64,000 bases of DNA from Candidatus Spongiihabitans sp. (GCA_965206355.1 OZ242212.1:1118814-1182813), one strand, 5' to 3'. Positions 540 through 60,140 are shown, counted from the first letter of the stretch. Translations and numbers: made by a program. Notes: generated by a model from the letters alone, not told the origin.

Positions 540-700
540 GAGACCTTGTGCACGGAAGATGATTTCGCTTTCAGGTAAGGCAAAAACGCACGGAATGAGG
601 GAGTTTATGCTTATAAATGACCGATTGAGTGATTTTAGCAACAGTAGGCGCTTGTAGGCGACGCAGCATGCAGGTGAAATAGCTTTCGTGCAAAGGTCTC
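540..700 (+). mobile_element. MITE copy, long form (161 bp), slightly degenerate
   Basis: Matches the 162-bp consensus. The left TIR is degenerate (gagaccttgtgcacg) and the right TIR is cgtgcaaaggtctc. Flanks are aaatc/aaaac, an imperfect TSD. Lies between two minus-strand genes. Confidence 0.85.
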
Positions 701-740
701 AAAACAGTACCGCTCCCTTTCACCCACATTCGGAAACATC

Positions 741-1868
741 CTATCTTCTTAATTTCCTTGACTTTATTGCTTTATCTCGCGCATCACCGACCCAGTCCAG
801 TCCCGAGCCCTTGCTTTCAACCGAACGCCCCTCTCTATCAACACAATATCGACCAAACACCACCGCTTCCGAGAGCACACCGTGTTTACGCATCAAGGTA
901 TGCTCGAATAACAGACTTCTATGCACTCTAGCACCACCTTCCAGATAACAACCATGAGAAATCCATGTTGGACCTTGAATTTCACATCCGGCCTCAATTC
1001 TTGAATTTGAACCGATATAGACCGGGCCTTCAATAAACACATCATCCCAGTCAACATCCACGTTCAGACCGCTCCATATCCGTGGCATAACTTCAGTCCC
1101 CGGCATATTGATACCGCGAACGACACCACGCATTAATTGTTGGTTAACCTGCCAATAATCGCTCAACCTCCCAATATCAACCCATCTGAAAGGCAACTCA
1201 ATGGCAGCAAAGGACAACCCCTTGACCAGCAAATCCGGCAACAAATCAGCACCGATATCATAGACGACTTCACTCGGGATCAAATCAATAATTTCCGGTT
1301 CAAAAATATAAATACCGGTATTGACCAGTGTCGATTTAGCCTCTTGCACAGTGGGCTTTTCCTGAAACGAAATAATTGCCCCGCTTTCATCCGCAACCAC
1401 CACCCCATAATCGGCGACCCTTGCTTTTGCTACCCGCTTAACGACGATGCTGGCTTTTGCACCAGACTGCCAGTGTTTCCGCATCACATCGGTTAAATTT
1501 AGATCAATAATGGCATCGCCACAGACCACGATAAAGGTATCGTCAAAAAACCCGCCAAATTCCTGAATACGTTTTATCCCTCCAGCCGACCCCAAAGGCT
1601 CACCAAACAATTCCCCGTTTTCGATATGTCCCTCAAAAGAATAGCCGATATTAACCCCCCAACGCCGCCCGTCTCCAAAATAAGTCTCAATCGGTTCAGG
1701 TAAATGGCTGACATTGACCATAACATCATAAAAACCGTGATTCGCCAACTGTTCAATCAGATATTCCATCACTGGTTTACCGAGAATCGGAATCATTGGC
1801 TTGGGCATCTCATAAGTAAGTGGTTGCACGCGCGTCCCTTTCCCCGCTGCCAAAATCATTGCCTTCAT
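741..1868 (-). CDS. NDP-sugar pyrophosphorylase (nucleotidyltransferase with C-terminal left-handed beta-helix)
   Basis: 375-aa ORF. The N-terminus MKAMILAAGKGTRVQPLTYEMPKPMIPILGKP carries the sugar-1-phosphate nucleotidyltransferase signature (GxGTRxxPLT, KP). The C-terminal half resembles hexapeptide repeats. Sugar specificity cannot be determined. Confidence 0.8.
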   Translation of the reverse strand: MKAMILAAGKGTRVQPLTYEMPKPMIPILGKPVMEYLIEQLANHGFYDVMVNVSHLPEPIETYFGDGRRWGVNIGYSFEGHIENGELFGEPLGSAGGIKRIQEFGGFFDDTFIVVCGDAIIDLNLTDVMRKHWQSGAKASIVVKRVAKARVADYGVVVADESGAIISFQEKPTVQEAKSTLVNTGIYIFEPEIIDLIPSEVVYDIGADLLPDLLVKGLSFAAIELPFRWVDIGRLSDYWQVNQQLMRGVVRGINMPGTEVMPRIWSGLNVDVDWDDVFIEGPVYIGSNSRIEAGCEIQGPTWISHGCYLEGGARVHRSLLFEHTLMRKHGVLSEAVVFGRYCVDREGRSVESKGSGLDWVGDARDKAIKSRKLRR

Positions 1869-1973
1869 TATTTTATATTCCGTACTGAAAAATTTTAATT
1901 CCCGCGATGGTAAAGGATTCTGTTTAAGGATTCCATTATCGCGCTCCGATAATAGCGTGCAATATGTTTCTAA

Positions 1974-2130
1974 GAGACCTTTGCACGGAAGATGATTTCG
2001 CTTTCAGGCCAGGCAAAAACGCACGGAATGAGGGAGTTTATGCTTATAAATGACCGATTGAGACCAATTTTACCAACAGTAGGCGCTTTTAGGCGACGTA
2101 GCATGCAGGTGAAATGGCTGCAAAGGTCTC
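1974..2130 (+). mobile_element. MITE copy, long form (157 bp)
   Basis: Consensus match with a 5-bp deletion next to the right TIR (gaaatggctgcaaaggtctc). Flanks tctaa/aaaga do not match, so there is no TSD. Confidence 0.85.
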
Positions 2131-2248
2131 AAAGAGCATATCCAAATGTTGGATATAAACTTGGATGTCCCATATTAGCACCGTCTCCCGTATTAGCACC
2201 GTAATTAGCAAAAAAACAGCCCCTGAACGCAAAGAAATGCGTTAAACT

Positions 2249-2668
2249 ATGGCATCTACCAAACTTAAATACATAATGTCCCCTGAAATTCTTACCATTA
2301 TCGGCATGACTGCCACTATTCTCATCGCCACTTGGACGATGAACCGTAGCTTGCGCTCGGAGTTACAGGCAGAGATAAAAGGTATTCGTAGCGAGTTAAA
2401 GGAGGAAATCCAGGGTTTACGAAGTGAACTGAAGGAAGGAATCCAAGATTTGCGAAGTGAACTGAAGGAAGAAATCCAAGATTTGCGAAGTGAGATGAAA
2501 GTAGCAATCCAAGATTTGCGAAGTGAGATGAAAGAAGAAATCCACGGTCTGCGCGATGCTCAGAACAGCCTCAACGAACGTATGAACGGTCTCAACGAGC
2601 GCATGGCTGGTGTGGAGGGATTGGTTACCGGACTTAAAGAATCTATCGTTATCCGCGCCGTTGCTTAA
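2249..2668 (+). CDS. Membrane-anchored coiled-coil protein with six tandem 11-residue repeats
   Basis: 139-aa ORF with an N-terminal hydrophobic helix (ILTIIGMTATILIATWTM). Next come LRSELKEEIQG-type hendecad repeats and LNERMNGLNERMAG. No strong SD. The repeat periodicity preserves the frame. Confidence 0.6.
   Translation: MASTKLKYIMSPEILTIIGMTATILIATWTMNRSLRSELQAEIKGIRSELKEEIQGLRSELKEGIQDLRSELKEEIQDLRSEMKVAIQDLRSEMKEEIHGLRDAQNSLNERMNGLNERMAGVEGLVTGLKESIVIRAVA
2351..2548 (+). repeat. Six tandem 33-bp (11-codon) repeats inside the coiled-coil CDS
   Basis: Units encode LRSELQAEIKG / IRSELKEEIQG / LRSELKEGIQD / LRSELKEEIQD / LRSEMKVAIQD / LRSEMKEEIHG. Confidence 0.9.
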
Positions 2669-2757
2669 ACAAGCTGTTGCTTAAGCCAAAAGAGTCGCGT
2701 CCAAACAACCGACATCTGCGTTCACACCACCATTAACCCGAAAGCACCTGTTTCATA

Positions 2758-2896
2758 GAGACCTTTGCACGAAAGCCATTTCACCTGCATGCTGCGTTAA
2801 AATCGTACTCAATCGGTCATTTATAAGCATAAACTCCCTCATTCCGTGCGTTTTTGCCTTGCCTGAAAGCGAAATCATCTTCCGTGCAAAGGTCTC
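2758..2896 (-). mobile_element. MITE copy, short form (139 bp), reverse orientation
   Basis: Perfect TIRs. Lacks the 23-bp internal segment of the long form. 5-bp TSD tcata at 2753-2757 and 2897-2901. Confidence 0.92.
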
Positions 2897-3192
2897 TCAT
2901 AACCAGAGGCAAGTGCGGTTTTTTGGAAAAACATTAATTTTTTTTAATAATTATGCGAAAAAAGGGGTAAAAGCGGTTGCAATAATAAAAAATGTAGGTA
3001 TAGTCCGTGCGCAAGTGGTGTGAATGCAGGTTATTCACATTACTGAATTGTCATGCTAGATGGTGGTTTGATGCCGTTTGGGTTGCAGTTCTTAATTTAG
3101 TTTTTTTAACTCGATCTTTTTTTTAACTTGATCTATGGAACATCTTCCGTAATGGAATGTTCTTTAATCACAATCTATTACAGAGAAATAAA

Positions 3193-4260: not shown

Positions 4261-4286
4261 TGTTTTTTTGATTCGTTACAAAGTGA

Positions 4287-5160: not shown

Positions 5161-5185
5161 CGCTGTTTATCCCATCGCATTTACT

Positions 5186-5347
5186 GAGACCTTTGCACGA
5201 AAGCCATTTCACCTGCATGCTGCGTCGCCTAAAAGCGCCTACTGTTGGTAAAATCGTACTCAATCGGTCATTTATAAGCATAAACTCCCTCATTCCGTGC
5301 GTTTTTGCCTTGCCTAAAAGCGAAATCATCTTCCGTGCAAAGGTCTC
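5186..5347 (-). mobile_element. MITE copy, long form (162 bp), reverse orientation, inside the aat-bpt operon
   Basis: Perfect TIRs. TSD ttact at 5181-5185 and 5348-5352. The right-hand TSD copy contains the aat stop codon (tta at 5348-5350 on the + strand). Confidence 0.95.
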
Positions 5348-6070
5348 TTACTGTTTTTCCCCTGATTGCCGATAACACGATGCTAACGGCATGTTTTTCC
5401 AGTTTCCGGGTTTGCCGGGTTGCATCAACGCATATTCCAACCGCTCAAGGAATTCTGTGCGTGCCATTTCTACGGCACCCAGACGCAATAAATGCGGGGA
5501 TGTTATTTGGCAATCAATAAGCTGAAAATTCCATAGGGTTAAATGGGAAATTAAAAAATTCAATGCCGCTTTCGAGGCATCGCTAACTTGACTAAACATA
5601 CTCTCACCAAAAAATATGCCGCCCAAAGCAATGCCGTATAAACCGCCAACCAATTCGTCACTTATGCGGGTTTCTACGGAATGCGCATAGCCAGATTGAT
5701 GCAGACGTATATAAGCATCACGCATATCTTTGCTAAGCCATGTGTCAGAATCCGAATTCTTGGTACGCGGTGCGGCGCAGTGATTGATGACCGCTGCAAA
5801 GGCATCATCAAAAGAAAAAACAAAGTGCTGTTTTTTAATTGTTTTTTTCAGGCTTCGCTGTGCTTTATACTGGTCGGGCAATAATACGCATCTGGGGTCG
5901 GGAGACCACCACAGGATGGGCTCGCCAGCATTATACCAGGGGAAGATTCCTTTTCGATAAGCCGCCAGCAGACGTTTCACACTTAAATCACCGCCAATAG
6001 CCAACAACCCCTGTTCTGAAGCGTATCTAACATCGGGAAAATCTTCTGTGCTATTCATCATCAAATTCAT
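5348..6070 (-). CDS. aat: Leucyl/phenylalanyl-tRNA-protein transferase
   Basis: 240 aa. GLLAIGGDLSVKRLLAAYRKGIFPWYNAGEPILWWSPDPRCVL aligns closely with the E. coli Aat N-terminal region. Confidence 0.92.
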   Translation of the reverse strand: MNLMMNSTEDFPDVRYASEQGLLAIGGDLSVKRLLAAYRKGIFPWYNAGEPILWWSPDPRCVLLPDQYKAQRSLKKTIKKQHFVFSFDDAFAAVINHCAAPRTKNSDSDTWLSKDMRDAYIRLHQSGYAHSVETRISDELVGGLYGIALGGIFFGESMFSQVSDASKAALNFLISHLTLWNFQLIDCQITSPHLLRLGAVEMARTEFLERLEYALMQPGKPGNWKNMPLASCYRQSGEKQ

Positions 6071-6078
6071 TACTCAAT

Positions 6079-6235
6079 GAGACCTTTGCAGCCATTTCAC
6101 CTGCATGCTGCGTCGCCTAAAAGCACCTACTGTTGGTAAAAATGGTCTCAATCGGTCATTTATAAGCATCAACTCCCTCATTCCGTGCGTTTTTGCCTGG
6201 CCTGAAAGCGAAATCATCTTCCGTGCAAAGGTCTC
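6079..6235 (-). mobile_element. MITE copy, long form (157 bp), reverse orientation
   Basis: 5-bp deletion beside one TIR (tttgcagccattt). TSD tcaat at 6074-6078 and 6236-6240. Begins 8 nt upstream of the aat start codon, in the aat/tsaD divergent region. Confidence 0.92.
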
Positions 6236-7345: not shown

Positions 7346-7657
7346 AAGACCTTTGCACGAGCCGGAATTTTATTTGTTAGTGAGACCTTTGCACGGAAGA
7401 TGATTTCGCTTTCAGGCCAGGCAAAAACGCACGGAATGAGGGAGTTTATGCTTATAAATGACCGATTGAGACCAATTTTACCAACAGTAGGCGCTTTTAG
7501 GCGACGCAGCATGCAGGTGAAATGGCTTTCGTGCAAAGGTCTCTTAGTAAAGAAAAAGCGCATGAAATGAGGGAGTTTATGCTTATAAATGACCGATTGA
7601 GACCAATTTTACCAACAGTAGGTGCTTTTAGGCGACGCAGTATGCAGGTGAAATGGC
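7346..7657 (+). mobile_element. Older, diverged MITE copy split by a nested younger copy and truncated at its right end
   Basis: Left arm 7346-7381 begins aagacctttgcacga. Right arm 7544-7657 matches consensus positions from about 43 to about 150 (aaaaagcgcatgaaatgagggagtttatgc...gcaggtgaaatggc). The right TIR is missing, and the element ends against the plsY stop codon (7659). Confidence 0.75.
7382..7543 (+). mobile_element. MITE copy, long form (162 bp), nested inside the older copy
   Basis: Perfect TIRs. TSD ttagt at 7377-7381 and 7544-7548. Both flanks are themselves MITE-derived sequence. Confidence 0.95.
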
Positions 7658-8680: not shown

Positions 8681-9162
8681 TTCGTACTGTCTTGAGTCTG
8701 GGCAGCAATATCAACCGTGAAAAAAATATTCGCTTTGCGGTTAAGCAAATTAACAATCTGTACGGCGACATTGAGATTTCACCCGTCTATGAAACCGCCT
8801 CAATAGGATTTACCGGAGCGGCATTTTTTAATTTAGTGATTAGCTTTAAGACATCAACCCCGTTGATTGATATAAGAGATCAATTACGGGATATTGAAGC
8901 GACAGCAGGACGTATTCGTGCTAAAAAGTCATTCGATAATCGACTCCTGGATATTGACATTATCCTGTTCGGCAATAAAAGTTTGCGTGCTGACGACTTT
9001 AATATCCCCAGGGATGAGATTGAGAAATACGCTTATGTTTTGAAACCATTATCAGACTTATACCCGACGCTAACACACCCGATAAGTGGTGTCAGCTTCA
9101 AACAAATGTGGTTGGATTTTGATAATACGCAAGTGCTTAAAGTAGCGAACTTTTCGTTGTAA
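8677..9162 (+). CDS. folK: 2-amino-4-hydroxy-6-hydroxymethyldihydropteridine diphosphokinase
   Basis: 161 aa. The GTG start overlaps the folB stop (GTGA). SLGSNINRE...ISPVYETASIGF...LDIDIILFG are HPPK signatures. Confidence 0.9.
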   Translation: MIRTVLSLGSNINREKNIRFAVKQINNLYGDIEISPVYETASIGFTGAAFFNLVISFKTSTPLIDIRDQLRDIEATAGRIRAKKSFDNRLLDIDIILFGNKSLRADDFNIPRDEIEKYAYVLKPLSDLYPTLTHPISGVSFKQMWLDFDNTQVLKVANFSL

Positions 9163-9196
9163 AAGAAAAGCCGTTGAGGACACTGTCAATAATTTT

Positions 9197-9358
9197 GTGA
9201 CCTTTGCACGGAAGATGATTTCGCTTTTAGGCAAGGCAAAAACGCACGGAATGAGGGAGTTTATGCTTATAAATGACCGATTGAGACCGTTTTTACCAAC
9301 AGTAGGCGCTTTTAGGCGACGTAGCATGCAGATGAAATGGCTTTCGTGCAAAGCTCTC
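9197..9358 (+). mobile_element. MITE copy, long form (162 bp)
   Basis: TIRs carry one mismatch each (gtgacc... / ...aagctctc). Flanks atttt/aaact do not match, so there is no TSD. Confidence 0.88.
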
Positions 9359-9534
9359 AAACTAAAATACATCCGAATTGTGCCTATTAAAGGTTGTATT
9401 ATTAGGCGAATATGAGAAGCGCAAATTGGCTTAGCCGACAACGGACAGGTTGGGTATGTTGTGGTTGTATATTACGCATCGTTGCAACCAAGTTCGGGCT
9501 ATCGCTTTTTGTGAAGTCATGATAAAAACAGTAT

Positions 9535-9696
9535 GAGACCTTTGCACGGAAGATGATTTCGCTTGTAGGCAAGGCAAAAACGCACGGAATGAGGGAGTTT
9601 ATGCTTATAAATGACCGATTGAGTACGATTTTACCAACAGTAGGCGCTTTTAGGCGACGTAGCATGCAGATGAAATGGCTTTCGTGCAAAGGTCTC
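9535..9696 (+). mobile_element. MITE copy, long form (162 bp)
   Basis: Perfect TIRs. TSD agtat at 9530-9534 and 9697-9701. Same orientation as the copy 176 bp upstream. Confidence 0.95.
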
Positions 9697-9769
9697 AGTA
9701 TATATCATCCTGTGGCTGATATTTCAGGTACACTTGCGGGGTTGCAACTATGAAAAACGGAGTGAATTG

Positions 9770-11047
9770 ATGGCCAATAATAACAGCGAGCAGGGTCGTT
9801 ATGTCAGTTTGCTGACACGCGATACGCTGGTGCTAATCCTTGCCGGCGGTCAGGGTTCCCGCTTGTATGAATTGACCGAATGGCGTGCTAAGCCGGCGGT
9901 GTATTTTGGTGGTAAGTTGCGCATCATTGATTTTCCGTTGTCCAACTGTATCAATTCAGGGATACGGCGGATTGGTGTGTTGACTCAGTATAAGGCGCAT
10001 TCCCTGATCCGCCATCTGGTGCATGGCTGGACTGGTTTCCAGCACGATCGGAGCAGCTTTATCGAAATTTTGCCAGCTTCACAACGTACTGGTCAGGAAT
10101 GGTATCTTGGCACTGCGGATGCAGTCTATCAGAATCTTGATATTATTCGCACGCATGATCCGGGTTATGTGCTGATACTCGCCGGTGATCATGTGTACAA
10201 GATGGATTATGGTTCTCTGCTGGCATGGCATTCGGAAAAACAGGCGGATATGACAGTATGCTGTGTCAAAGTGCCGCTGGCAGAAGCTGCCGGCACACTT
10301 GGGGTAATGACGGTTAATGAGCATGGCCGTGTCATTGCCTTTGACGAAAAGCCTGAAAACCCGCAACCCATACCCGGGCAAAACGAGCTGTGTCTGGCAT
10401 CAATGGGAAACTATGTGTTTAACACGGCTTTTCTGTTTGAGCAGGTCATCAAAGATGCCGATACCCGCCATTCTGCACATGATTTTGGTAAGAACATTAT
10501 TCCGTCCATCATTGATAGCTGTCAAATTTATGCGTTCCCGTTTCAGGATAATACCTTGCGACAACCTTACTGGCGCGATGTCGGTACACTGGATGCGTTC
10601 TGGGAGGCGAATATGGAACTCATCGGTATTGAGCCGGCACTTGACCTGTATGACAGTAACTGGCCGATTTTTTCATATCAGACACAATCACCGCCGGCAA
10701 AGTTTGTCTTTGATGAACCCAGTCGTCGTGGTGAAGCGATAGCCTCTATAGTATCAGCAGGCTGTATTATTTCCGGCGCAAGTGTCAAACGTTCCGTGTT
10801 GTTTTCAAATTGCCGTGTCCGCTCATATGCTTCCATAGAAGATGCCGTGATACTGCCAGATTGTGAAATCAATCGGCATTGCCGCATTAAGAACGCCATC
10901 ATTGATCGTGGCACGATTATTCCGCAAGCTATGGAAGTGGGTGTTGATCTTGAGGCGGATCGTGAGCGTGGATTTCGGGTGACGGCTGGTGGACGCACAC
11001 TGGTAACGCCGGATATGTTGGGGCAGACTTTGCACTATACGAGATAG
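9770..11047 (+). CDS. glgC: Glucose-1-phosphate adenylyltransferase
   Basis: [64 protein letters not shown] is the canonical GlgC N-terminus. ATG at 9770 is preferred over the TTG at 9734. Confidence 0.95.
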
Positions 11048-12609: not shown

Positions 12610-14803
12610 TCAGCCCAATCAGTCACTTGCTCATCAGTCTGATTCGGCAGCTATATGGCAGGCGTTGGCAGAGGGTCGGCATAGCAATCCATTTGCACTG
12701 CTTGGCATCCATATGGAAAAAGGTGTCCGTGTAGTCAGAACCTTGCAACCGCATGCCCAATCAGTAACCCTGCTCGATGGTCTTGGTAATGAACTGCTGC
12801 CAATGCGTCTGGTGCATAGCGGTGGTATCTTTGAAGCGCCGATGACGGCAAGGAAACGGCACTATAAATTGCGTATCACAACAAAATCCGCTACCGTTTT
12901 TGATATTGAGGATGCCTATCGGTTGCCGTCAATGTTGGCGGACTTGTCCCAGACAGCAGAAGAAGGGCATCCGCAAATTTTCAATAAACTCGGCGCACAA
13001 CCGACTCGTCTGCTGGGTCTGAGTGGCACCTGTTTTTCAGTCTGGGCACCCAATGCACTGCGCGTCAGCGTGATTGGAGATTTTAATGATTGGGATGGGC
13101 GGCGACACGTTATGCGTTTGCATCCGCATAGTGGTATCTGGGAAATTTTTATACCCGCCGTTGCTGTTGGTAGCTACTACAAATATGAACTACTTGATCA
13201 GCAGGGCAAGTTACTGCCGCTGAAGAGCGACCCGCAGGCATATTTTTTTGAGCCACCGCCGGGAAATGCGTCAATCGTTTATCGCAGTCAGCATCGCTGG
13301 CGTGATGCGATATGGATGAAGCAACGCCCCAGTGTGCCACAGCTCAATCAGCCGCTCAGTATTTATGAGGTTCACCTCGGTTCTTGGCGGCGCAACCCTG
13401 ATCAAGGAAACCGTCCTTTGCGCTATCGTGAGCTGGCAGACGAGCTGGTCGCTTATGTGGTGGAGATGGGATTTACCCATGTTGAGCTGTTACCGATTAC
13501 TGAGCATCCTTTTGATGGTTCCTGGGGTTATCAGCCCATCGGTATGTATGCGCCGACTCAGCGTTTCGGCAATCCGGATGACTTTCGTTACTTTATTGAT
13601 TGTTGTCATCGCGCCAACATCGCGGTCATTCTGGATTGGGTTCCCGCGCATTTTCCGCGTGATACCCATGGTCTCGGTCGTTTTGACGGTAGCGCATTGT
13701 ATGAACACCAAGACCCACGTAAAGGTGAGCATAGCGACTGGGGTACGCTGATTTTTAACTATGGGCGGCATGAAGTCATTAACTACTTGATTAACAATGC
13801 TCTGTATTGGATTGACGAATTCCACATTGACGCATTGCGTGTCGATGCTGTGGCATCCATGCTGTATCTCGATTATTCACGCGCACCAGGTGAATGGCTT
13901 GCCAACCAATATGGTGGCAATGAAAACCTTGAAGCGATTGATTTTATTCGCCGTCTGAATATTGCCATTCACGCGCGTGGAGCATGTTGTTTCGCCGAGG
14001 AATCAACTGACTGGGCAGGGGTCTCGCATCCGACCGACAGCGGTGGGCTGGGTTTTACCTACAAGTGGAACATGGGCTGGATGAACGATACGCTGGCATA
14101 TATGCGTAAACAACCTATCCACCGCAAGCATCACCATGACAAAATGAGCTTCGGGCTGGTCTATGCTTTCAATGAAAATTTTGTGTTGCCACTATCGCAT
14201 GACGAGGTCGTGCACGGCAAAGGATCGTTGCTCGGACGGATGCCCGGGGACGATTGGCAACGCTTTGCCAACCTGCGTGCCTATTTCGGTTTTATGTATG
14301 CCCATCCGGGCAAAAAACTGTTGTTTATGGGTGCCGAGCTTGCCCAGCATAAGGAATGGGATCACGATCAATCGCTGGACTGGCATTTGCTTGAGCAGCC
14401 ACGTCATCGCGGTATGCAAACACTGGTACGCGATCTGAACTGTGTTTACCGCACCACGCCAGCACTCTATCAACAGGATTTCAAAAGTGTAGGTTTTGAA
14501 TGGATTGACTGGCAGGATAACGATAACAGCGTACTCGCATGGATACGCTATGCCGACAATGGTGATTTCGTGGTCTGTCTTTCCAACTTCACCCCACAGC
14601 TTCTCAAGCACTACCGTATCGGCGTGCCAACTGCTGGCAATTACCGTGAACGGCTCAATACCGATGCCCATCAATATGGTGGCAGTGGCAAGGTGCATTC
14701 AAAGAGACTAACATCGCAAGCCAGCCCATGCCATGGTCGTCGAGATTCGTTATTGCTGACTTTAGCGCCACTGGCAACGCTGATTTTGCAACTGGAAGAC
14801 TGA
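12590..14803 (+). CDS. glgB: 1,4-alpha-glucan branching enzyme
   Basis: GH13 branching-enzyme motifs (YEVHLGSW, DWVPAHF, GFRVDAV-like HIDALRVDAVASMLY, FAEESTDW, LPLSHDEVVHGK). ATG at 12590 overlaps the glgA stop by 20 nt. The ORF-track start at 12530 is less likely. Confidence 0.92.
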   Translation: MNPRPHNQPNQSLAHQSDSAAIWQALAEGRHSNPFALLGIHMEKGVRVVRTLQPHAQSVTLLDGLGNELLPMRLVHSGGIFEAPMTARKRHYKLRITTKSATVFDIEDAYRLPSMLADLSQTAEEGHPQIFNKLGAQPTRLLGLSGTCFSVWAPNALRVSVIGDFNDWDGRRHVMRLHPHSGIWEIFIPAVAVGSYYKYELLDQQGKLLPLKSDPQAYFFEPPPGNASIVYRSQHRWRDAIWMKQRPSVPQLNQPLSIYEVHLGSWRRNPDQGNRPLRYRELADELVAYVVEMGFTHVELLPITEHPFDGSWGYQPIGMYAPTQRFGNPDDFRYFIDCCHRANIAVILDWVPAHFPRDTHGLGRFDGSALYEHQDPRKGEHSDWGTLIFNYGRHEVINYLINNALYWIDEFHIDALRVDAVASMLYLDYSRAPGEWLANQYGGNENLEAIDFIRRLNIAIHARGACCFAEESTDWAGVSHPTDSGGLGFTYKWNMGWMNDTLAYMRKQPIHRKHHHDKMSFGLVYAFNENFVLPLSHDEVVHGKGSLLGRMPGDDWQRFANLRAYFGFMYAHPGKKLLFMGAELAQHKEWDHDQSLDWHLLEQPRHRGMQTLVRDLNCVYRTTPALYQQDFKSVGFEWIDWQDNDNSVLAWIRYADNGDFVVCLSNFTPQLLKHYRIGVPTAGNYRERLNTDAHQYGGSGKVHSKRLTSQASPCHGRRDSLLLTLAPLATLILQLED

Positions 14804-14846: not shown

Positions 14847-14985
14847 GAGACCTTTGCACGGAAGATGATTTCGCTTTCAGGCCAGGCAAAAACGCACGGA
14901 ATGAGGGAGTTTATGCTTATAAATGACCGATTGAGTACGTTTTTAACGCAGCATGCAGGTGAAAGGGCTTTCGTGCAAAGGTCTC
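14847..14985 (+). mobile_element. MITE copy, short form (139 bp)
   Basis: Perfect TIRs. TSD atata at 14842-14846 and 14986-14990. Sits between glgB and glgP. Confidence 0.95.
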
Positions 14986-17839: not shown

Positions 17840-17978
17840 GAGACCTTTGCACGAAAGCCATTTCACCTGCATGCTGCGTTAAAAACGTACTCAATCGGTC
17901 ATTTATAAGCATAAACTCCCTCATTCCGTGCGTTTTTGCCTTGCCTGAAAGCGAAATCATCTTCCGTGCAAAGGTCTC
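17840..17978 (-). mobile_element. MITE copy, short form (139 bp), reverse orientation
   Basis: Perfect TIRs. TSD aatat at 17835-17839 and 17979-17983. Confidence 0.95.
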
Positions 17979-23210: not shown

Positions 23211-23343
23211 GAGACCTTTGCACGAAAGATGATTTCGCTTTCAGGCCAGGCAAAAACGCACGGAATGAGGGAGTTTATGCTTATAAATGACCGATTGAGT
23301 ACGTTTTTACCAACAGTAGGCGCTTTTAGGCGACGTAGCATGC
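23211..23343 (+). mobile_element. MITE copy, long form, truncated (right 29 bp missing)
   Basis: Consensus match from the left TIR to ...ggcgacgtagcatgc, then unrelated sequence. Its last 18 nt are the final 5 codons plus the stop of the Sel1-repeat CDS on the opposite strand. Confidence 0.9.
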
Positions 23344-24867
23344 TATTTCCTGGGCTTTGAGTATGTCAGCCGTGTTCATTTTTTTAGCAACTTTTTCCCT
23401 GCTTGATGGAGCAGATTCCTCTCCGTTTGCGGCTGCAAGGTTGAGCCATAAATGTGCGCGCAAATAATCCTGCGGGACACCCTCGCCGATGTCGTACATC
23501 AAGCCAAGATTGTACTGCGCAGTGGCATTTCCCTGTTCAGCCACCAACCGGTACCACTTGACGGCTTCGACATCATCCTGCGGGACGCCCTCGCCGTGGT
23601 CATACATCAAAGCAAGGTTGAACTGCGCATCGGCGAATCCCTGTTTGGCCGCCAACCGGTACCACTTGACGGCTTCGGCATAATCCTGCGCGACGCCCTC
23701 GCCAGCCTCGTACATCACACCAAGGATGAACTGCGCCGCGGCGAATCCCTGTTTAGCCGCCAACCGGAACCACTTGACGGCTTCGGCATCATCCTGCGGG
23801 ACGCCCTTGCCGCTGAGGTACATCACACCAAGGTTGAACTGCGCAGTGGCGTAACCCTGTTTGGCCGCCAACCGGTACCACTTGACGGCTTCGGCATCAT
23901 TCTGCGCGACGCCCTTGCCGTTGAGGTACATCACACCAAGGTTGTACTGCGCTTCGGCAAACCCCTGCTCGGCGGCCAGCCTGAACCACTTGAGGGCCTC
24001 GGCATCATCCTGCGGGACGCCCTCGCCGTTGAGGTACATCAAACCGAGGATGAACTGCGCCCTGGCGACTCCCTGTTTGGCCGCCAACCGATACCACTTG
24101 ACGGCTTCGGCATAATTCTGCGGGACGCCCTTGCCGTTGAGGTACATCACACCAAGGTTGTACTGCGCTTCGGCGATCCCCTGCGTAGCGGCCAGCTTGT
24201 ACCACTTGATGGCCTCGGCATCATCCTGCGCGACGCCTTTGCCAGCCTCGTACATCACACCAAGGTTGTACTGCGCATCGGCGTCTCCCTGTTTGGCCGC
24301 CGATCGGTAACACTTGACGGCTTCGGCGTAATCCTGCGGGACGCCTTTGCCAGCCTGGTACATCAAACCAAGGTTGAACTGCGCCTTGGCGTAACCCCGT
24401 TTGGCCGCCAATCGGAACCACTTGACGGCTTCGGCATAATTCTGCGGGACGCCCTTGCCAGCCTCGTACATCACACCAAGGTTGTACTGCGCATCGGCGA
24501 ATCCCTGTTTGGCCGCCAATCGGAACCACTTGACGGCTTCGGCATAATTCTGCGCGACGCCCTTGCCGTTGAGGTACATCACACCAAGGTTATGCTGTGC
24601 CCTGGCGACTCCCTGTTTGGCCGCCAACCGGTACCACTTGACGGCTTCGGCATCATTCTGCGGGACGCCCTCGCCGTTGGAGTACATCAAACCAAGGTTG
24701 AACTGCGCTTTGGCGTCTCCTTGTTCAGCAAGTGGTCGCCAATGTTTTAGGGCGGTTTCATAATCTCCGACCCGGGACGCTTCCCACCCTGCCTCCAAAT
24801 CCTGAGCCAACATTGCAGATGGGAGCAGGATCAGGATGATCGCCGTTACTTGGATCATTTTACGCAT
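23326..24867 (-). CDS. Secreted Sel1-repeat (SLR/TPR-like) protein, 12 tandem repeats
   Basis: 513 aa with signal peptide MRKMIQVTAIILILLPSAMLA. It has twelve 36-aa units of the form AEAVKWYRLAAKQGxAxAQxNLGVMYxxGxGVPQD. The C-terminal ACYVA-stop is read from MITE sequence. Confidence 0.9.
   Translation of the reverse strand: MRKMIQVTAIILILLPSAMLAQDLEAGWEASRVGDYETALKHWRPLAEQGDAKAQFNLGLMYSNGEGVPQNDAEAVKWYRLAAKQGVARAQHNLGVMYLNGKGVAQNYAEAVKWFRLAAKQGFADAQYNLGVMYEAGKGVPQNYAEAVKWFRLAAKRGYAKAQFNLGLMYQAGKGVPQDYAEAVKCYRSAAKQGDADAQYNLGVMYEAGKGVAQDDAEAIKWYKLAATQGIAEAQYNLGVMYLNGKGVPQNYAEAVKWYRLAAKQGVARAQFILGLMYLNGEGVPQDDAEALKWFRLAAEQGFAEAQYNLGVMYLNGKGVAQNDAEAVKWYRLAAKQGYATAQFNLGVMYLSGKGVPQDDAEAVKWFRLAAKQGFAAAQFILGVMYEAGEGVAQDYAEAVKWYRLAAKQGFADAQFNLALMYDHGEGVPQDDVEAVKWYRLVAEQGNATAQYNLGLMYDIGEGVPQDYLRAHLWLNLAAANGEESAPSSREKVAKKMNTADILKAQEIACYVA
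23450..24745 (-). repeat. About 12 tandem 108-bp DNA repeats (Sel1 units), coordinates approximate
   Basis: Blocks such as ccgccaaccggtaccacttgacggcttcggcat recur with 108-bp periodicity, and many units are near-identical at the DNA level. Confidence 0.85.
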
Positions 24868-25125: not shown

Positions 25126-25287
25126 GAGACCTTTGCACGAAAGCTATTTCACCTGCATGCTGCGTCGCCTAAAAGTGCCTACTGTTGGTAAAATTGGTCT
25201 CAATCGGTCATTTATAAGCATAAACTCCCTCATTCCATGCGTTTTTGCCTGGCCTGAAAGCGAAATCATCTTCCATGCAAATATCTT
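25126..25287 (-). mobile_element. MITE copy, long form (162 bp), reverse orientation, decaying
   Basis: Left end is perfect. Right end is degenerate (ttccatgcaaatatctt versus ttccgtgcaaaggtctc). No recognisable TSD. Confidence 0.85.
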
Positions 25288-30836: not shown

Positions 30837-30998
30837 GAGACCTTTGCACGGAAGATGATTTCGCTTTCAGGCAAGGCAAAAACGCACGGAATGAGGGAGT
30901 TTATGCTTATAAATGACCGATTGAGTACGATTTTACCAACAGTAGGCGCTTTTAGGCGACGTAGCATGTAGGTGAAATGGCTTTCGTGCAAAGGCCTC
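30837..30998 (+). mobile_element. MITE copy, long form (162 bp)
   Basis: TSD aatct at 30832-30836 and 30999-31003. The right TIR has one mismatch (aaggcctc). Confidence 0.93.
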
Positions 30999-31167: not shown

Positions 31168-31306
31168 GAGACCTTTGCACGGAAGATGATTTCGCTTTCA
31201 GGTAAGGCAAAAACGCACGGAATGAGGGAGTTTATGCTTATAAATGACCGATTGAGTACGTTTTTAACGTAGCATGCAGGTGAAAGGGCTTTCGTGCAAA
31301 GGTCTC
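31168..31306 (+). mobile_element. MITE copy, short form (139 bp)
   Basis: Perfect TIRs. TSD gatgt at 31163-31167 and 31307-31311. Ends 29 nt upstream of the ilvA start codon. Confidence 0.95.
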
Positions 31307-34158: not shown

Positions 34159-34523
34159 ACAAAAATTTTAAGTTCATTTTACAAATATTTTTTGGGGATC
34201 ATTTGCGACTGAGCTTTAAGCGGCTTTTAATTACTTCTTGTTGGCTAATTTAACCGTGGTGATGTAGCCACCATTATTGTCGATTGTATGCGTACAGGAT
34301 GTGCATTTGTAATTTTAGAAGAAAGGAAGGAGCTACTGAAGTCTTTGGAGGCTGAAAGGCTGAACATGAACGCTGGGAAGCTGAACGCCTGAAGACTAAA
34401 CAGACAACCAGATAAATAAGCGGATTAAAGAAGTTGTTACGTTGACGTTCAGGCGTTTTCACAATAAGCTGCGCAAACAAAATGGCCTGTCGTCTGGGTA
34501 TTGAATGTAGTACACTCTCCGCT

Positions 34524-34970
34524 ATGAATACGGTTGCTTTTGACACGCTCGCCTTTGCCAAACGCTTGCAGGAAGCAGGGGTTCCGGCTGTGCAGGCGGA
34601 GGCGCATGCGATTGCACAAGCGGATTTTCTAACCCACCACCTGCTGAGCGAAGTCGCCACAAAGATCGATCTTAAAGCATTGGAGGTCGCCACTAAGACC
34701 GATCTCAAAGCATTGGAGGTCGCCACCAAGACCGATCTTAAAGCATTGGAGGTTGCCACCAAGACCGATCTCAAAGCCCTGAAAGCCGATATCAAAGCAC
34801 TGGAGATTGCCACTAAAGCTGACATCACGGCACTGAAAGACGCCACTAGAGCCGATTTGGCTGATATGCGAGTTGCTCTGGCGGGGATGGAAACCAAACT
34901 CAGTTTGCGGATGCTGTTTATGGTGGGTGCGCTGGCTACCTTGATGACCTTTTTTAAGTTTATGGGATAA
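34524..34970 (+). CDS. DUF1640-like coiled-coil protein with a C-terminal membrane anchor
   Basis: From the ATG at 34524: MNTVAFDTLAFAKRLQEAGVPAVQAEAHAIAQ is the characteristic DUF1640 N-terminus. Next come EVATKTDLKAL hendecad repeats and a terminal hydrophobic helix LRMLFMVGALATLMTFFKF. Confidence 0.75.
   Translation: MNTVAFDTLAFAKRLQEAGVPAVQAEAHAIAQADFLTHHLLSEVATKIDLKALEVATKTDLKALEVATKTDLKALEVATKTDLKALKADIKALEIATKADITALKDATRADLADMRVALAGMETKLSLRMLFMVGALATLMTFFKFMG
34650..34781 (+). repeat. Four tandem 33-bp (11-codon) repeats inside the DUF1640-like CDS
   Basis: Units encode EVATKIDLKAL / EVATKTDLKAL x3. More degenerate 11-mers follow, to about 34870. Confidence 0.9.
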
Positions 34971-37863: not shown

Positions 37864-38025
37864 GAGACTTTTGCACGGAAGATGATTTCGCTTTCAGGCA
37901 AGGCAAAAACGCACGGAATGAGGGAGTTTATGCTTATAAATGACCGATTGAGTACGATTTTACCAACAGTAGGCGCTTTTAGGCGACGCAGCATGCAGGT
38001 GAAATGGCTTTCGTGCAAAGCTCTC
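37864..38025 (+). mobile_element. MITE copy, long form (162 bp)
   Basis: TSD taact at 37859-37863 and 38026-38030. One mismatch in each TIR. Inserted between the upstream stop codon and its terminator hairpin. Confidence 0.93.
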
Positions 38026-46419: not shown

Positions 46420-46558
46420 GAGACCTTTGCACGGAAGATGATTTCGCTTTCAGGCCAGGCAAAAACGCACGGAATGAGGGAGTTTATGCTTATAAATGAC
46501 CGATTGAGTACGATTTTAACGCAGCATGTAGGTGAAATGGCTTTCGTGCAAAGGCCTC
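46420..46558 (+). mobile_element. MITE copy, short form (139 bp)
   Basis: TSD actat at 46415-46419 and 46559-46563. The right TIR has one mismatch (aaggcctc). Confidence 0.93.
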
Positions 46559-46982: not shown

Positions 46983-47700
46983 GGGGCTGTCCTAGATAAC
47001 ACTGAAAGAGTGCTATCATGGGATCAATGAGAAAGAGTCGTTTAAGCCGTTATAAACAAGGTCGTCTTATTGAGCATTTTGTGTCGGGTTCAACCGCCCG
47101 CACGGCAGCATTGCTGGTTGGGATCAACAAGTCCACATCGGCGTATTTTTATCACCAGTTGCGCGAGATTATCGCATATGAGCTTGAACAAGAAAGCCAT
47201 GAGGTTTTTGACGGGGAGATTGAAGTCGATGAAAGTTATTTTGGCGGTGGTCGCAAAGGCAAACGAGGTCGGGGAGCGGCGGGGAAAATCCCGGTGTTTG
47301 GCTTACTCAAACGGGGCGGGAAGGTTTACGCCAAGATTATCCCGGATGCTTGTTCAGCAACCTTGATGCCAATTATTGAGCGTAAAGTGGTTCCGGACAG
47401 CATCGTTTATTCCGACTGTTGGAGCGGTTATAATGTGCTGGACGTGAGCGATTTCAAGCACCACCGCATCAACCATTCCCAACGCTTCGCGGAGCAGGGG
47501 AATCACATCAACGGCATTGAGAACTTTTGGAGTCAGGCGAAGCGTCATATGCACAAATTCAACGGTGTTCCCAAGGCGCATTTTGGGCTGTTTTTGAAGG
47601 AGTGCGAGTGGCGTTTTAACAACAGCGACCCAATATCTCAATTATTTCAATTAAAACAATGGGTTGGAGTTCATTTAAACTAGTTATCTAGGACAGCCCC
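46983..47700 (+). mobile_element. IS1595-family insertion sequence (ISXO2-like), apparently intact
   Basis: 718 bp. Perfect 18-bp TIRs ggggctgtcctagataac / gttatctaggacagcccc. 8-bp TSD tataattt at 46975-46982 and 47701-47708. A single transposase ORF. Confidence 0.92.
47018..47683 (+). CDS. IS1595-family transposase (DDE, ISXO2-like)
   Basis: 221 aa. GEIEVDESYFGG..KGKRGRGAAGKIPVFGLLKRGGKVYAKII, YSDCWSGYNVL and INGIENFWSQAKRHM are typical ISXO2-like transposase segments. Confidence 0.9.
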   Translation: MGSMRKSRLSRYKQGRLIEHFVSGSTARTAALLVGINKSTSAYFYHQLREIIAYELEQESHEVFDGEIEVDESYFGGGRKGKRGRGAAGKIPVFGLLKRGGKVYAKIIPDACSATLMPIIERKVVPDSIVYSDCWSGYNVLDVSDFKHHRINHSQRFAEQGNHINGIENFWSQAKRHMHKFNGVPKAHFGLFLKECEWRFNNSDPISQLFQLKQWVGVHLN

Positions 47701-54388: not shown

Positions 54389-54428
54389 TGTCCCCTATAC
54401 CCCCTGATACCCCATTGATAACTAACTG

Positions 54429-55421: not shown

Positions 55422-56771
<1,350 letters not shown>

Positions 56772-56803
56772 CCCGATACGATCAATCTCAGAAAATCAAC
56801 AAA

Positions 56804-57085: not shown

Positions 57086-57141
57086 TTAACGCGGGTTATT
57101 GATTTGCCATGAAGCAAATCTGTTTTGCTGATTTTTTAAGT

Positions 57142-57303
57142 GAGACCTTTGCACGGAAGATGATTTCGCTTTTAGGCCAGGCAAAAACGCACGGAATGAG
57201 GGAGTTTATGCTTATAAATGACCGATTGAGTACGATTTTACCAACAGTAGGCGCTTTTAGGCGACGCAGCATGCAGGTGAAATGGCTTTCGTGCAAAGGT
57301 CTC
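57142..57303 (+). mobile_element. MITE copy, long form (162 bp)
   Basis: Perfect TIRs. TSD taagt at 57137-57141 and 57304-57308. Its right end supplies an in-frame ATG (57282) to the csaA-like remnant. Confidence 0.95.
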
Positions 57304-57612
57304 TAAGTGTTGATATTCGTGTCGGCACCGTATTATCTGCCTCGCTAAATCCAAAAGCGCGACAACCAGTGTATGTTATGGAAATAGATTTTGGCGATGA
57401 ATTTGGTATAAAAACAAGCTCGGCGCAGTTGACAGAAAACTATGCCATTGACGATCTTGTTGGCAGGCAGGTTTGCGGAGTAATCAATTTTCCCCCGTTA
57501 TGAGGGTGGCTGGAATTAAGTCCGCAGTGCCTGTTCCGGCAATCTGCGATACACCGGTACGGTTTTAGTCACACCAGACCGGTCGGTTACAAATGGTGGG
57601 CGGTTAGCTTAA
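57304..57612 (+). pseudogene. csaA: CsaA-like tRNA-binding-domain (EMAP/OB-fold) gene, 5'-truncated and frameshifted
   Basis: Frame 1 reads VDIRVGTVLSASLNPKARQPVYVMEIDFGDEFGIKTSSAQLTENYAIDDLVGRQVCGVINFPP and then stops. Frame 2 continues RVAGIKSAV. Frame 3 ends GTVLVTPDRSVTNGGRLA*. Together they align with B. subtilis CsaA from residue 11 or so to the end. At least two frameshifts are present, and about 10 N-terminal codons are replaced by the MITE. Confidence 0.7.
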
Positions 57613-58512
57613 ATGAACACGTTACGCTCCCCCGTTTTTTTCGATTACCTGTTGCTGGTATTGCTGGCGGGTTTGCTTGGTAGCAGTTTTTTACTGATGA
57701 AAGTCGCTGTGGGTAGCGTGCCAATATTATATATCGTGTTTTTCAGATTGTTAGTCGCATTCCTTATTTTATATGCTTTTATGCGACTCAAACATTTTGC
57801 GTTACCCTCATTTCGGGAAAAAGGGTTTTGGAAAACAGCGGTTGTGCTTGGTTTTAGCGCGAATATTATTCCATTTTCACTCATTACTTGGGCAGAACAA
57901 ACAATAGACAGCAATCTGGCAGCCATATATATGGCAACCATTCCTATCTTTACTTTGATAATGGCGCATTGCCTAACCGATGACGAGAAAATATCCGTCA
58001 AAAAATCTATCGGCGTCTGTGTCGCTTTCTTTGGGGTGGTTATTCTACTATGGCAAGAAGCTGGAGATATGACATTCAATTTAATAGCGCAAATTGCTTG
58101 CCTGATCGCCGCTGTCTTTTATGCGTATTCGGGAATCAAGATCAAAAAGCTGGCAAATATCAATCCGGTCGTTATCAGCACAGGCGTATTGTTATGTGGG
58201 GTAGTAGTGATGCTTCCATTTGTCTTATATTTCGAGGATATAACCAATATAACCCCCGCAAACGAAGCTATCCTTGCTATCGTATTACTGGGTGTATTTC
58301 CGACTGCTCTGGCGTTTGTTGTTCTGTGCAAACTCATTGCTGATGTCGGTGCTGTCTATACGACAAACACCAACTATCTTATTCCCATTTTCGCTTTATT
58401 CTGGGGCTACATTTTCCTATCCGAGTTAATCAATGAAAGGATAATAATGGCACTGATGTTTATTATGACTGGTGTGTTTTTGGTTTCACAAAAAAGCATT
58501 GTAAAAAAGTAA
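57613..58512 (+). CDS. EamA/DMT-superfamily transporter
   Basis: 299 aa with ten predicted TM helices in two EamA-like halves. Confidence 0.85.
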   Translation: MNTLRSPVFFDYLLLVLLAGLLGSSFLLMKVAVGSVPILYIVFFRLLVAFLILYAFMRLKHFALPSFREKGFWKTAVVLGFSANIIPFSLITWAEQTIDSNLAAIYMATIPIFTLIMAHCLTDDEKISVKKSIGVCVAFFGVVILLWQEAGDMTFNLIAQIACLIAAVFYAYSGIKIKKLANINPVVISTGVLLCGVVVMLPFVLYFEDITNITPANEAILAIVLLGVFPTALAFVVLCKLIADVGAVYTTNTNYLIPIFALFWGYIFLSELINERIIMALMFIMTGVFLVSQKSIVKK

Positions 58513-58572
58513 GTAATATGAAGCGCACAACGGATCAGACAAGCAATTCCGTTCATTCTGTCTATTCAAGGT

Positions 58573-58711
58573 GAGACCTTTGCACGGAAGATGATTTCGC
58601 TTTCAGGCAAGGCAAAAACGCACGGAATGAGGGAGTTTATGCTTATAAATGACCGATTGAGTACGATTTTAACGCAGCATGCAGGTGAAATGGCTTTCGT
58701 GCAAAGGTCTC
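58573..58711 (+). mobile_element. MITE copy, short form (139 bp)
   Basis: Perfect TIRs. TSD aaggt at 58568-58572 and 58712-58716. Sits between convergent genes. Confidence 0.95.
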
Positions 58712-58745
58712 AAGGTAATGTTTTTATCCGGGTTGTTAGGGTCTA

Positions 58746-59786
58746 TTACGGAATTTCATAAGGCAGGGCAATGCGTTTCAGCTTTGCGCCCGTTACCGAA
58801 CCGATCATCAAATCACCCGCTTCAACCATGCCCGCCGGAACCATGGCGGATAATTGAAACTGATTATCTGCGGTTTTAACGGCATCAACCACCATACCCG
58901 ATTTCTGCACGGCTTGGCTTTGCACGGCTTGACTCTGACTGACTCGACTATAAATAGCATCACCGGGCGCAATGTTATGGTTTGATGCTACAGTGGCAAT
59001 AATCAGACGTTGTTTAGGGTGGCCCAAATGTTTTATTCTGGCAATAATTTCCTGCCCTGGAAAACAGCCTTTCCTGAAGCTGATGCCATCCACCAATTCC
59101 AGATTTATCGACTGCGGGATAAAGGTTTCAACGGTTTTCGCATAGATTTGAGGGATGCCAGATCGAATATCCAGCCACCGCCAAAAATCGCAATGCAATC
59201 GTGGTATGCTCTTGATTATGCTGTGGTTGGAGTCGGCAATAATCAGATGCCTGGGCACGATTGCATCAACCCGATAACAAAAACAACCAGAATCTTGTCT
59301 GCTTTGTCCGATTATCTCTTGCACTTTCTCCCCGCTCATTGCCCCTGTCATCCCCAACAATACATAACCGCTATCCGGCTCAATGGTCACTTTCGAGCGC
59401 ATGACAAACATTTTTAAGCGTCTGATTAGTGAATTGCTTATATCCTTAGGGACTATCATCCAGAACTCTTTACGCTTGCCCTCGTTCTCATTATTGGCCT
59501 GCTTATTAGTTTGGTCATTAGCGATGAGGCGGACAACCGCCAGACTCCTGCCCTTGCGATTACAATAGCTATGCAGTTGGCAGTGCTGTCTGCCCAGCGT
59601 CTTGAGATCATTACTGAACTGCCTTTGTAGAAAAGACTGCGCGTCATCGCCGCTAACCTGAATCAGATCGAGATGGGAAAGATCAATTAGATGATTGTGT
59701 GCCGAGCTACCCGCGACAATCGACTCCAGATCCATGCTCTCAAGACGAATCAGCGCAGAAGAATTATAGGGTTGTGATGATGTCAT
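58746..59786 (-). CDS. ygfZ: Folate-binding Fe-S cluster repair / tRNA-modification protein YgfZ
   Basis: 346 aa. The signature is FRKGCFPGQEIIARIKHLG (the K-G-C-[YF]-x-G-Q-E motif of the YgfZ/GcvT-like family). Confidence 0.85.
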   Translation of the reverse strand: MTSSQPYNSSALIRLESMDLESIVAGSSAHNHLIDLSHLDLIQVSGDDAQSFLQRQFSNDLKTLGRQHCQLHSYCNRKGRSLAVVRLIANDQTNKQANNENEGKRKEFWMIVPKDISNSLIRRLKMFVMRSKVTIEPDSGYVLLGMTGAMSGEKVQEIIGQSRQDSGCFCYRVDAIVPRHLIIADSNHSIIKSIPRLHCDFWRWLDIRSGIPQIYAKTVETFIPQSINLELVDGISFRKGCFPGQEIIARIKHLGHPKQRLIIATVASNHNIAPGDAIYSRVSQSQAVQSQAVQKSGMVVDAVKTADNQFQLSAMVPAGMVEAGDLMIGSVTGAKLKRIALPYEIP

Positions 59787-59978
59787 TATTGCGGATATTG
59801 AAAGTGTTTATATAAGCTCAAGTGCTGTCCTGTTTGGGGATTTAATTCTAACACCGCTTAATCGGAAAGAATATATCTCTATGCGGGTTCAACAGGTCGT
59901 TGGATAGTATCTATTAAAAACCACTGGGTGGCGATAATTAACACGATTGTTGTGATACGAGAGGGTTGGTATTTCATC

Positions 59979-60140
59979 GAGACCTTTGCACGGAAGATGA
60001 TTTCGCTTTCAGGTAAGGCAAAAACGCACGGAATGAGGGAGTTTATGCTTATAAATGACCGATTGAGTACGATTTTACCAACAGTAGGCGCTTTTAGGCG
60101 ACGCAGCATGCAGGTGAAATGGCTTTCGTGCAAAGGTCTC
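59979..60140 (+). mobile_element. MITE copy, long form (162 bp)
   Basis: Perfect TIRs, but flanks tcatc/atttt do not match (no TSD). Lies in the ygfZ/ppc divergent region. Confidence 0.93.

Follow-up and report, generated by a model that had tools for sequence, protein, structure and literature searches.

A dense family of miniature inverted-repeat elements in Candidatus Spongiihabitans sp. with ends like those of ISAba23-like IS5-family insertion sequences

Introduction

The insertion sequence ISAba23, of the IS5 family, is 1,249 bp long; its inverted repeats measure 16 bp and its duplication 5 bp (PMC4110982). Miniature transposable elements with inverted repeats (MITEs) linked to the IS5 family have been described in Porphyromonas, and IS1106-related elements appear in large surveys (PMC4596501; PMC11602168). 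A published table of ends gives GAGACCTTTGCAAAA for ISNme1, a member of the IS5 family, GAGACCATTGCA for ISPg1 and GAGACCTTTGCA for BrickBuilt_4 (PMC4596501). Here we describe a MITE family of comparable kind in a 64,000-nt stretch of DNA from Candidatus Spongiihabitans sp. (GCA_965206355.1, OZ242212.1:1118814-1182813), the whole of which is called the window below. The family had been noticed from the sequence alone (referred to here as the original prediction), and we have followed up its extent, its mobility and the source of its ends.

The right end of ISAba23, TTTCGTGCAAAGGTCTC, is identical to the right end of the MITE at 17 of 17 nt (the left end of ISAba23 is GAAACCTTTGCACGAA), and both elements have a 5-bp duplication. 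As an autonomous element, ISAba23 encodes a transposase of ~330 aa, whereas the MITE is 139 or 162 bp long, is non-coding and has no similarity to ISAba23 past the ends. The hosts differ as well: ISAba23 is found in clinical Moraxellaceae (Acinetobacter, Moraxella), the MITE in uncultured marine Gammaproteobacteria. In ISNme1/IS1106 from Neisseria, and in ISPg1 and BrickBuilt/MITEPgRS from Porphyromonas gingivalis, the ends agree with those of the MITE over their first 12 nt, fully or nearly so, and divergence begins at position 13. In both cases, too, MITEs have ends in common with IS5-family elements; BrickBuilt differs in having an internal minisatellite and inconsistent duplications.

The ERIC/IRU and Correia (NEMIS) elements are intergenic, MITE-like, full-length palindromes of ~100-160 bp with high copy numbers, and they form RNA hairpins when co-transcribed. 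They resemble the present MITE in the full-length hairpin; their sequences are unrelated to it, and the MITE is set apart by its 5-bp duplication and by an identifiable candidate source in the IS5 family. Correia elements duplicate TA and are not known to have an autonomous partner. No paper or database entry describing the present family was found, and the literature matches to its end sequence were ISNme1, BrickBuilt and primers that probably match by chance. The family is apparently unnamed and undescribed, in agreement with the original prediction, which did not recognise it as any named MITE and left a gap as to its source that ISAba23-like IS5-family ends now probably fill. It lies within established transposon biology and is not a new kind of element.

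Copy number, size and spread in the window

The window is ordinary chromosomal DNA, with glycogen genes, mnmG, pyrG, ppc, ilvA, tsaD and plsY, and its base composition is 53% A+T. BLASTN with the 162-bp consensus of the original prediction finds exactly 20 copies of the MITE between positions 540 and 60140, and an nhmmer profile made from the aligned window copies agrees. Their combined length of 3,004 bp is 4.7% of the window, very close to the predicted 20 or so copies, 3 kb and 5%, and corresponds to about one quarter of the non-coding DNA of the window (~11.4 kb). The terminal inverted repeats have 14 perfect bp and continue imperfectly to ~28 bp, and copies occur in both orientations (14 on the + strand and 6 on the - strand); both points had been noted and are borne out. 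Allowing at most one mismatch, the 14-mer GAGACCTTTGCACG has 35 occurrences in the window, where 0.01 would be expected by chance. What had been described as a single unit of ~162 bp is the long form (157-162 bp, 12 copies); a short form of 139 bp, in which consensus positions 100-122 are missing, had gone unmentioned and accounts for six copies, and the other two are truncated (23211-23343 and 7554-7657).

Every copy is intergenic, and none of the 20 interrupts a gene. The density is one copy per 3.2 kb. The earlier wording that the family saturates the intergenic DNA was too strong, since ~17 of the ~55 intergenic regions hold a copy. At least six additional copies are present elsewhere on the same 2.36-Mb contig, where they are visible as short 'proteins' reading out into different flanks. 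The mean pairwise identity among the window copies is 96.0%; one pair (2758 and 58573) is identical, three further pairs differ by a single base, and the variation between copies clusters at a few sites, at which the same alternative states recur. Both ends are present in 18 copies, and 13 of these are flanked by perfect 5-bp duplications, the same count and the same 5-mers as originally listed.

Evidence for mobility

Related elements were collected by scanning one genome per species with the end sequence GAGACCTTTGCACGRAAG, which gave at least 94 loci in uncultured marine Gammaproteobacteria, including Halieaceae, Cellvibrionaceae, Candidatus Endobugula, Thiotrichaceae and Thiomicrorhabdus. 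Among the matches listed there are 82 two-ended elements of 76-280 bp with the same ends, 51 of which have perfect 5-bp duplications. When the right-hand 5-mer was taken 3 bp further out as an offset control, apparent duplications were seen in 2 of 79 cases. The 64 duplications, 13 from the window and 51 from elsewhere, all differ in sequence, and they are 81% A+T compared with 53% in the window.

Empty sites were sought in relatives that share the surrounding genes. Their TsaD proteins are 82-85% identical and their DNA is ~77-78% identical, so that they represent different species and not strains. At the aat-tsaD site, the relative L151 has a spacer of 83 bp with a single TCAAT, whereas the window has a 157-bp MITE on the - strand (6079..6235) between two copies of TCAAT, read on the + strand. 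The gap between the convergent genes tsaD and plsY is 2-8 bp in L110, L111/L112 and L151, compared with 331 bp in the window. The extra DNA consists of a solo repeat-like 14-mer on the + strand (AAGACCTTTGCACG, 7346..7359), which is probably the remnant of an older copy, a full 162-bp copy on the + strand (7382..7543) with the duplication TTAGT, and a truncated fragment on the + strand (7554..7657) that covers consensus positions ~42-145 and has lost both ends. The original prediction had preferred transposition to a repetitive extragenic palindromic (REP) type or structural repeat and had proposed empty sites as its own test; the single TCAAT in L151 upholds it. In L110, whose contig is 2.74 Mb long, the aat-tsaD spacer, which is the site of the window MITE, holds a ~1.2-kb tandem array of ~10 copies of a ~130-bp unit (8790-9990) that belongs to a different repeat family.

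The collected elements fall into two main groups. Subfamily B, with lengths of 139, 140 and 162 bp, holds the window copies; subfamily A, with a length of ~159 bp, has most of its members in Thiotrichaceae and Thiomicrorhabdus. These two subfamilies have only the terminal 18-20 nt in common and their interiors are unrelated, a pattern that fits ends recognised by a transposase and does not fit a conserved RNA gene. Duplications, empty sites and sister subfamilies together support the conclusion that the family is mobile DNA. The features that characterise a MITE are all present, namely small size, terminal inverted repeats, variable 5-bp duplications, many copies, presence or absence at orthologous sites, and a lack of coding capacity.

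As to age, some of the insertions are probably young, to judge from identical and near-identical copies whose duplications are intact. The Halieaceae metagenome-assembled genome (MAG) OZ242189.1 has the same element with a mean identity to the window copies of 94.6%, compared with 96.0% within the window, and it also has both length variants and several of the shared polymorphic states of the window. Because these variants are common to both genomes, the diversity either predates them or was exchanged between them, and the recent burst that had been proposed gains only partial support. OZ242189.1 has repeat families beyond the MITE: 1.5 kb of its locus L002 (6460-8000) is without an open reading frame (ORF) of at least 80 aa and contains several other short interspersed repeats, and a 460-bp segment of it recurs in L072.

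IS5-family elements with the ends of the MITE

The search for autonomous relatives was seeded with an IS1106-like transposase. The protein, no more than ~30-40% identical to members of the ISAba23-like clade, served only as a search seed, and it led to IS5-family elements on plasmids. One of these, on a Desulfolutivibrio plasmid (L117), is 1,263 bp long and has ends GAGACCGTTGCACGGAAAAATGG and a perfect ATATA duplication; metagenome relatives of its transposase belong to elements of 1,270-1,271 bp with the duplications AAGGT (L120) and AAGCT (L123); 5 bp is thus the duplication length in these more distant relatives as well. Metagenome contigs were further searched with a pattern composed of the MITE 14-mer, a gap of 235-265 nt and the back-translated transposase motif MFKxLLLQRWY, and 19 contigs match. 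Twelve of these contigs extend to the far end; their elements measure 1,172-1,257 bp and have the inverted 14-mer there too, exactly or with at most three mismatches.

Three of these elements (L127, L130 and L135) form a low-G+C group of 1,232-1,233 bp with a 327-aa transposase. Their left ends are the exact 14-mer and their right ends match it at 13 of 14 positions, and over 24 nt the left end of L127 is identical to the right end of the MITE at 22 positions. Duplications of 5 bp flank the full-length 14-mer elements L127 (GAAAC) and L135 (AGAGT). The transposases of the 14-mer elements pass the NCBIfam model NF033581 (IS5 family) and contain the Pfam domains DUF772 and DDE_Tnp_1. Among named elements ISAba23 comes closest, with 53% identity between its transposase and that of the low-G+C group; one copy of ISAba23 (L148) is flanked by the 5-bp duplication AAAAA. 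These results support ISAba23-like IS5-family elements as the likely source of the MITE ends. The assignment is made because two independent characters, end sequence and duplication length, agree; it does not draw on internal homology. Since the similarity stops at ~24 nt, the three low-G+C elements are to be regarded as cousins of the parent and not as the parent itself. A truncated element at locus L045 of a MITE-bearing MAG, which retains an exact end and 35 N-terminal transposase codons, indicates that deletion derivatives do arise in MITE-bearing lineages.

On this evidence, we propose that the MITE family consists of non-coding deletion derivatives, or end mimics, of an ISAba23-like IS5-family insertion sequence, and we put the probability of this explanation at about 0.87. 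Four observations weigh against it. BLASTN aligns the MITE with every full-length element over 14-25 nt at the ends only, which is not the alignment expected of a parent shortened by internal deletion. A matching IS5-type transposase was not found in the window, in the ~100 loci from MITE-bearing genomes or in L001-L112, and a search of 5.8 billion proteins with the 48-codon ORF of the MITE returned no transposase sharing that ORF. Finally, 5 of the 18 two-ended copies in the window have no perfect duplication. Longer elements with the same ends and a transposase, of the sort that the original prediction had recommended looking for in the genome, were found in metagenomes, as IS5-family elements, and not in the window or the MITE-bearing loci.

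Other searches for such an element were negative. Within the at least 94 loci, inverted pairs of ends 400-4,000 bp apart enclose only ordinary genes lying between MITEs, and neither extensions shared beyond the ends nor all-against-all repeats of at least 450 bp revealed a shared segment longer than 216 bp. The consensus has no BLASTN match to plasmids. An 18-mer scan of viral contigs gave 11 matches; ten fall by chance within a single conserved phage gene, and the other has nothing related.

Several candidates were tried and rejected. The ORF of the MITE (MISLSGQ...MLINDRLSTILP...) was considered as a remnant of a transposase N-terminus; the resemblance to FLDEIDRLIDW is weak (score ~25) and ~100 nt out of register, and the start codon is not conserved. 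An IS5-family element from a Marinomonas plasmid and elements from Francisella, Prevotella and Bealeia have tips of the GAGACC/AAGACC type, but their ends differ from those of the MITE, and the copies examined show no clear 5-bp duplication. A 552-aa transposase of IS5/IS1182 type with DUF772 and DDE_Tnp_1_2 adjoins tsaD in L111 (7675-9333), and its ends, TAGACCCTGCTCA, are unrelated to those of the MITE. In L151, a 119-aa DUF772 fragment of IS5/IS1182 type (13688-14047) has no match to the MITE ends.

A further group of IS5-family elements, ~1,172-1,239 bp long, occurs on metagenome contigs with 62-68% G+C (L129, L134, L137, L139, L140 and L143-L145), with ends GAGACCTTTGCACG and GAGACCTTTGCGCG or similar. 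Most of these high-G+C elements have an 8-bp sequence on one side and its inverted complement on the other (TCATGCTG and CAGCATGA, for instance). Either the inverted repeats really extend a further 8 bp, or the elements are inserted into a palindromic target.

If the proposed origin is correct, a DDE transposase of ~320-345 aa with DUF772 and DDE_Tnp_1, encoded elsewhere, would recognise both ends of the MITE. It could be encoded in this genome or be supplied transiently by a horizontally acquired element. The transposase would excise or copy the element, which would be reinserted into A+T-rich intergenic DNA at a cut staggered by 5 bp, and selection would purge the copies that land in genes, leaving only intergenic copies to persist. 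Co-transcription with neighbouring genes would then yield a long RNA hairpin of approximately -57 kcal/mol, and compensatory substitutions together with the stability of one strand suggest that the hairpin itself may be maintained.

The hairpin and alternative explanations

The MITE is self-complementary along its full length, and its consensus folds at -62 kcal/mol (z = -5.9). RNAalifold with 13 diverse subfamily B elements predicts a structure of 49 pairs, in which 96.7% of the cells are paired. Compensatory changes across genomes are found in 11 of these pairs, mostly not in the terminal 18 bp but in internal helices, including helices 2 and 3, which lie beyond the ends that a transposase would bind. 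Column shuffles give 3.7 +/- 1.2 covarying pairs and none of 500 reaches 11; sliding the partners by 1-3 columns gives one or two. The mean fold of subfamily B is -56.7 kcal/mol on the + strand and -44.9 kcal/mol on the - strand, a difference of ~12 kcal/mol, and 47 of the 48 elements fold more stably as the + strand; the equivalent asymmetry is present in 31 of 33 elements of subfamily A. One-strand stability means that the imperfect pairs are G.U and not A.C on that strand, which is the signature expected for RNA.

These findings are the basis of the best surviving rival explanation, in which the family is mobile in origin and is kept mainly as a strand-specific RNA module that acts on the stability, processing or translation of neighbouring mRNAs, a role of the kind reported for ERIC and Correia elements. 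Selection on the full-length fold would, if this were true, account for both the compensatory changes and the one-strand G.U pairs. The same idea can be put more broadly: many genomes would share the family as a strand-specific RNA hairpin cassette, retained between housekeeping genes of marine, probably host-associated Gammaproteobacteria. We consider the module explanation unlikely, and the broader cassette is doubtful to the same degree. The position of the elements relative to genes speaks on both sides. Between same-direction genes, 16 of 22 subfamily B elements point with the genes (p = 0.052), but in subfamily A the ratio is 6:12, the stable strand opposing the genes in 12 of 18, and the pooled ratio of 22:18 shows no bias; orientation is therefore suggestive in one subfamily and reversed in the other, and no claim is made from it. 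No outward promoter or terminator consensus was found within the copies, and Rfam gave no match at gathering scores for the whole window and none at E <= 1 for two copies. In addition, the covariation of the arms may come from templated repair or conversion within the palindrome, and many of the compensatory cells may derive from few events.

The hairpin also bears on coding. The sole ORF of the copies has 48 codons and begins at an apparent Shine-Dalgarno sequence and ATG at positions 57-70, within the apical stem; 7 of the 13 diverse relatives have ATA in place of this ATG. Because the start codon is not conserved and lies in the apical stem, the ORF is not a gene. A covariation analysis indicating a conserved structured RNA had been named in the original prediction as evidence that would count against a mobile insertion. 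A conserved hairpin does appear; we treat it as a secondary and unproven feature that would add to the mobile-element explanation and does not displace it.

The two remaining explanations fare far worse. A Tn3-family derived miniature element (TIME) would likewise make 5-bp A+T-rich duplications; Tn3-family ends, however, are ~38 bp long and start with GGGG, whereas the MITE ends start with GAGACC, identical to ISAba23 and to full-length IS5-family elements with 5-bp duplications, and this match already contradicts a TIME, which we regard as highly improbable (for TIMEs, see PMC4133298). The least probable explanation, a non-mobile structural repeat of REP or bacterial interspersed mosaic element (BIME) type, or else a family of structured non-coding RNA genes that has spread through duplication or recombination and not through transposition, agrees with the strong palindrome, the conserved pairing and the intergenic position of all copies but is already contradicted by the 64 different duplications and the empty site with a single 5-mer, as well as by sister subfamilies with identical ends and unrelated interiors, ends in common with autonomous insertion sequences, and the lack of an Rfam match.

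Individual copies and neighbouring features

The remaining copies that retain perfect duplications are spread over the whole window. Long copies of 162 bp on the + strand lie at 9535..9696 (duplication AGTAT), 30837..30998 (AATCT), 37864..38025 (TAACT) and 57142..57303 (TAAGT), the last being the nearest to the consensus (99.4%). Short copies of 139 bp on the + strand are found at 14847..14985, between glgB and the glycogen phosphorylase gene (ATATA), at 31168..31306, 29 bp upstream of ilvA (GATGT), at 46420..46558 (ACTAT) and at 58573..58711 (AAGGT). The copy identical to the last is on the - strand at 2758..2896; its duplication is TATGA in the orientation of the element, equivalent to tcata on the + strand. 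The sixth short copy, also on the - strand, is at 17840..17978, with ATATT in the orientation of the element (aatat on the + strand).

A 162-bp copy on the - strand (5186..5347; junction region 5181-5352) was inserted right at the stop codon of the leucyl/phenylalanyl-tRNA-protein transferase gene, which is itself on the - strand at 5348-6070. Its duplication, AGTAA in the orientation of the element, includes the TAA stop, so that the reading frame of the transferase ends unchanged, 0 bp from the element.

The five two-ended copies without a perfect duplication differ among themselves. The 161-bp copy at 540..700 (+ strand) has a 1-nt insertion in the left repeat, and its flanks, AAATC and AAAAC, match at four of five positions; the 157-bp copy at 1974..2130 (+ strand) has a 5-bp deletion near the right end and no intact duplication. 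The remaining three are 162 bp long. The copy at 25126..25287 (- strand) has one degenerate end, AAGATATTTGCATG; that at 9197..9358 (+ strand), which stands at the end of the shared gene order, after folK, has a 1-nt mutation in each end; and that at 59979..60140 (+ strand) has perfect ends and the flanks TCATC and ATTTT. The left flank of the copy at 9197, ATTTT, is the same as the right flank of the copy at 59979, which could be chance.

The gene order aat-tsaD-plsY-folB-folK is common to the window and three relatives and stops directly after folK. The relatives continue with rpmB and rpmG (regions compared: L110, 12541-13306; L151, 12671-12774); in the window, positions 9162-9734 hold two MITEs, one of them without a duplication, followed by a different gene. 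A MITE-associated rearrangement downstream of folK is possible. The copy at 23211..23343 (+ strand, 133 bp) is truncated at the right end and is overlapped over 18 bp by the 3' end of a Sel1/TPR-repeat ORF of 513 aa (23326-24867, - strand). The C-terminus and stop of this ORF may be supplied by the MITE, or the right end of the MITE and the original end of the gene may have been deleted together.

The window has a single transposase gene, that of a complete IS1595-family element of 718 bp (46983-47700), which encodes a 221-aa transposase (47018-47683, PF12762). Its perfect 18-bp inverted repeats, GGGGCTGTCCTAGATAAC, are unrelated to the MITE ends, and its duplication is 8 bp long (TATAATTT), as the original prediction had it: the window holds no transposase with matching ends, and this is its only insertion sequence. 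The element lies 425 bp away from the MITE at 46420-46558, and 718 bp is very short for an autonomous element. Elsewhere, the region 34274-34970 has overlapping ORFs on both strands; the + strand ORF (34482-34970) contains four tandem copies of the peptide KALEVATKTDL, and the - strand ORF has no Pfam match.

Significance

A probable source family can now be named for a MITE that is widespread in MAGs of Halieaceae, Cellvibrionaceae, Candidatus Endobugula, Thiotrichaceae and Thiomicrorhabdus. The family has consequences for annotation and assembly. Gene calls of 59-82 aa on the source contig and others (P0126-P0135) run from the internal ATG of the MITE into unrelated flanks, and these 'hypothetical proteins' are annotation artefacts made by the MITE; short-read assemblies, too, will break at its repeats. 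From synteny breakpoints and the loss of duplications it seems that copies take part in rearrangements.

For the study of transposition, the family offers a clean system for cross-mobilisation of short elements by an IS5-family transposase, and because subfamilies A and B share only ~18-20 nt of their ends, the likely recognition site is narrowed down. It also allows RNA-level selection on a full-length hairpin to be tested, with the covariation as a testable lead. Its high local density and its broad spread in marine, probably host-associated Gammaproteobacteria give the family moderate general interest. On the doubtful cassette reading, and if the density in the window holds genome-wide, the MITE load would rank with the densest that are known from bacteria, and the MITE would do much to shape operon expression and rearrangements in a shrinking 2.4-Mb genome.

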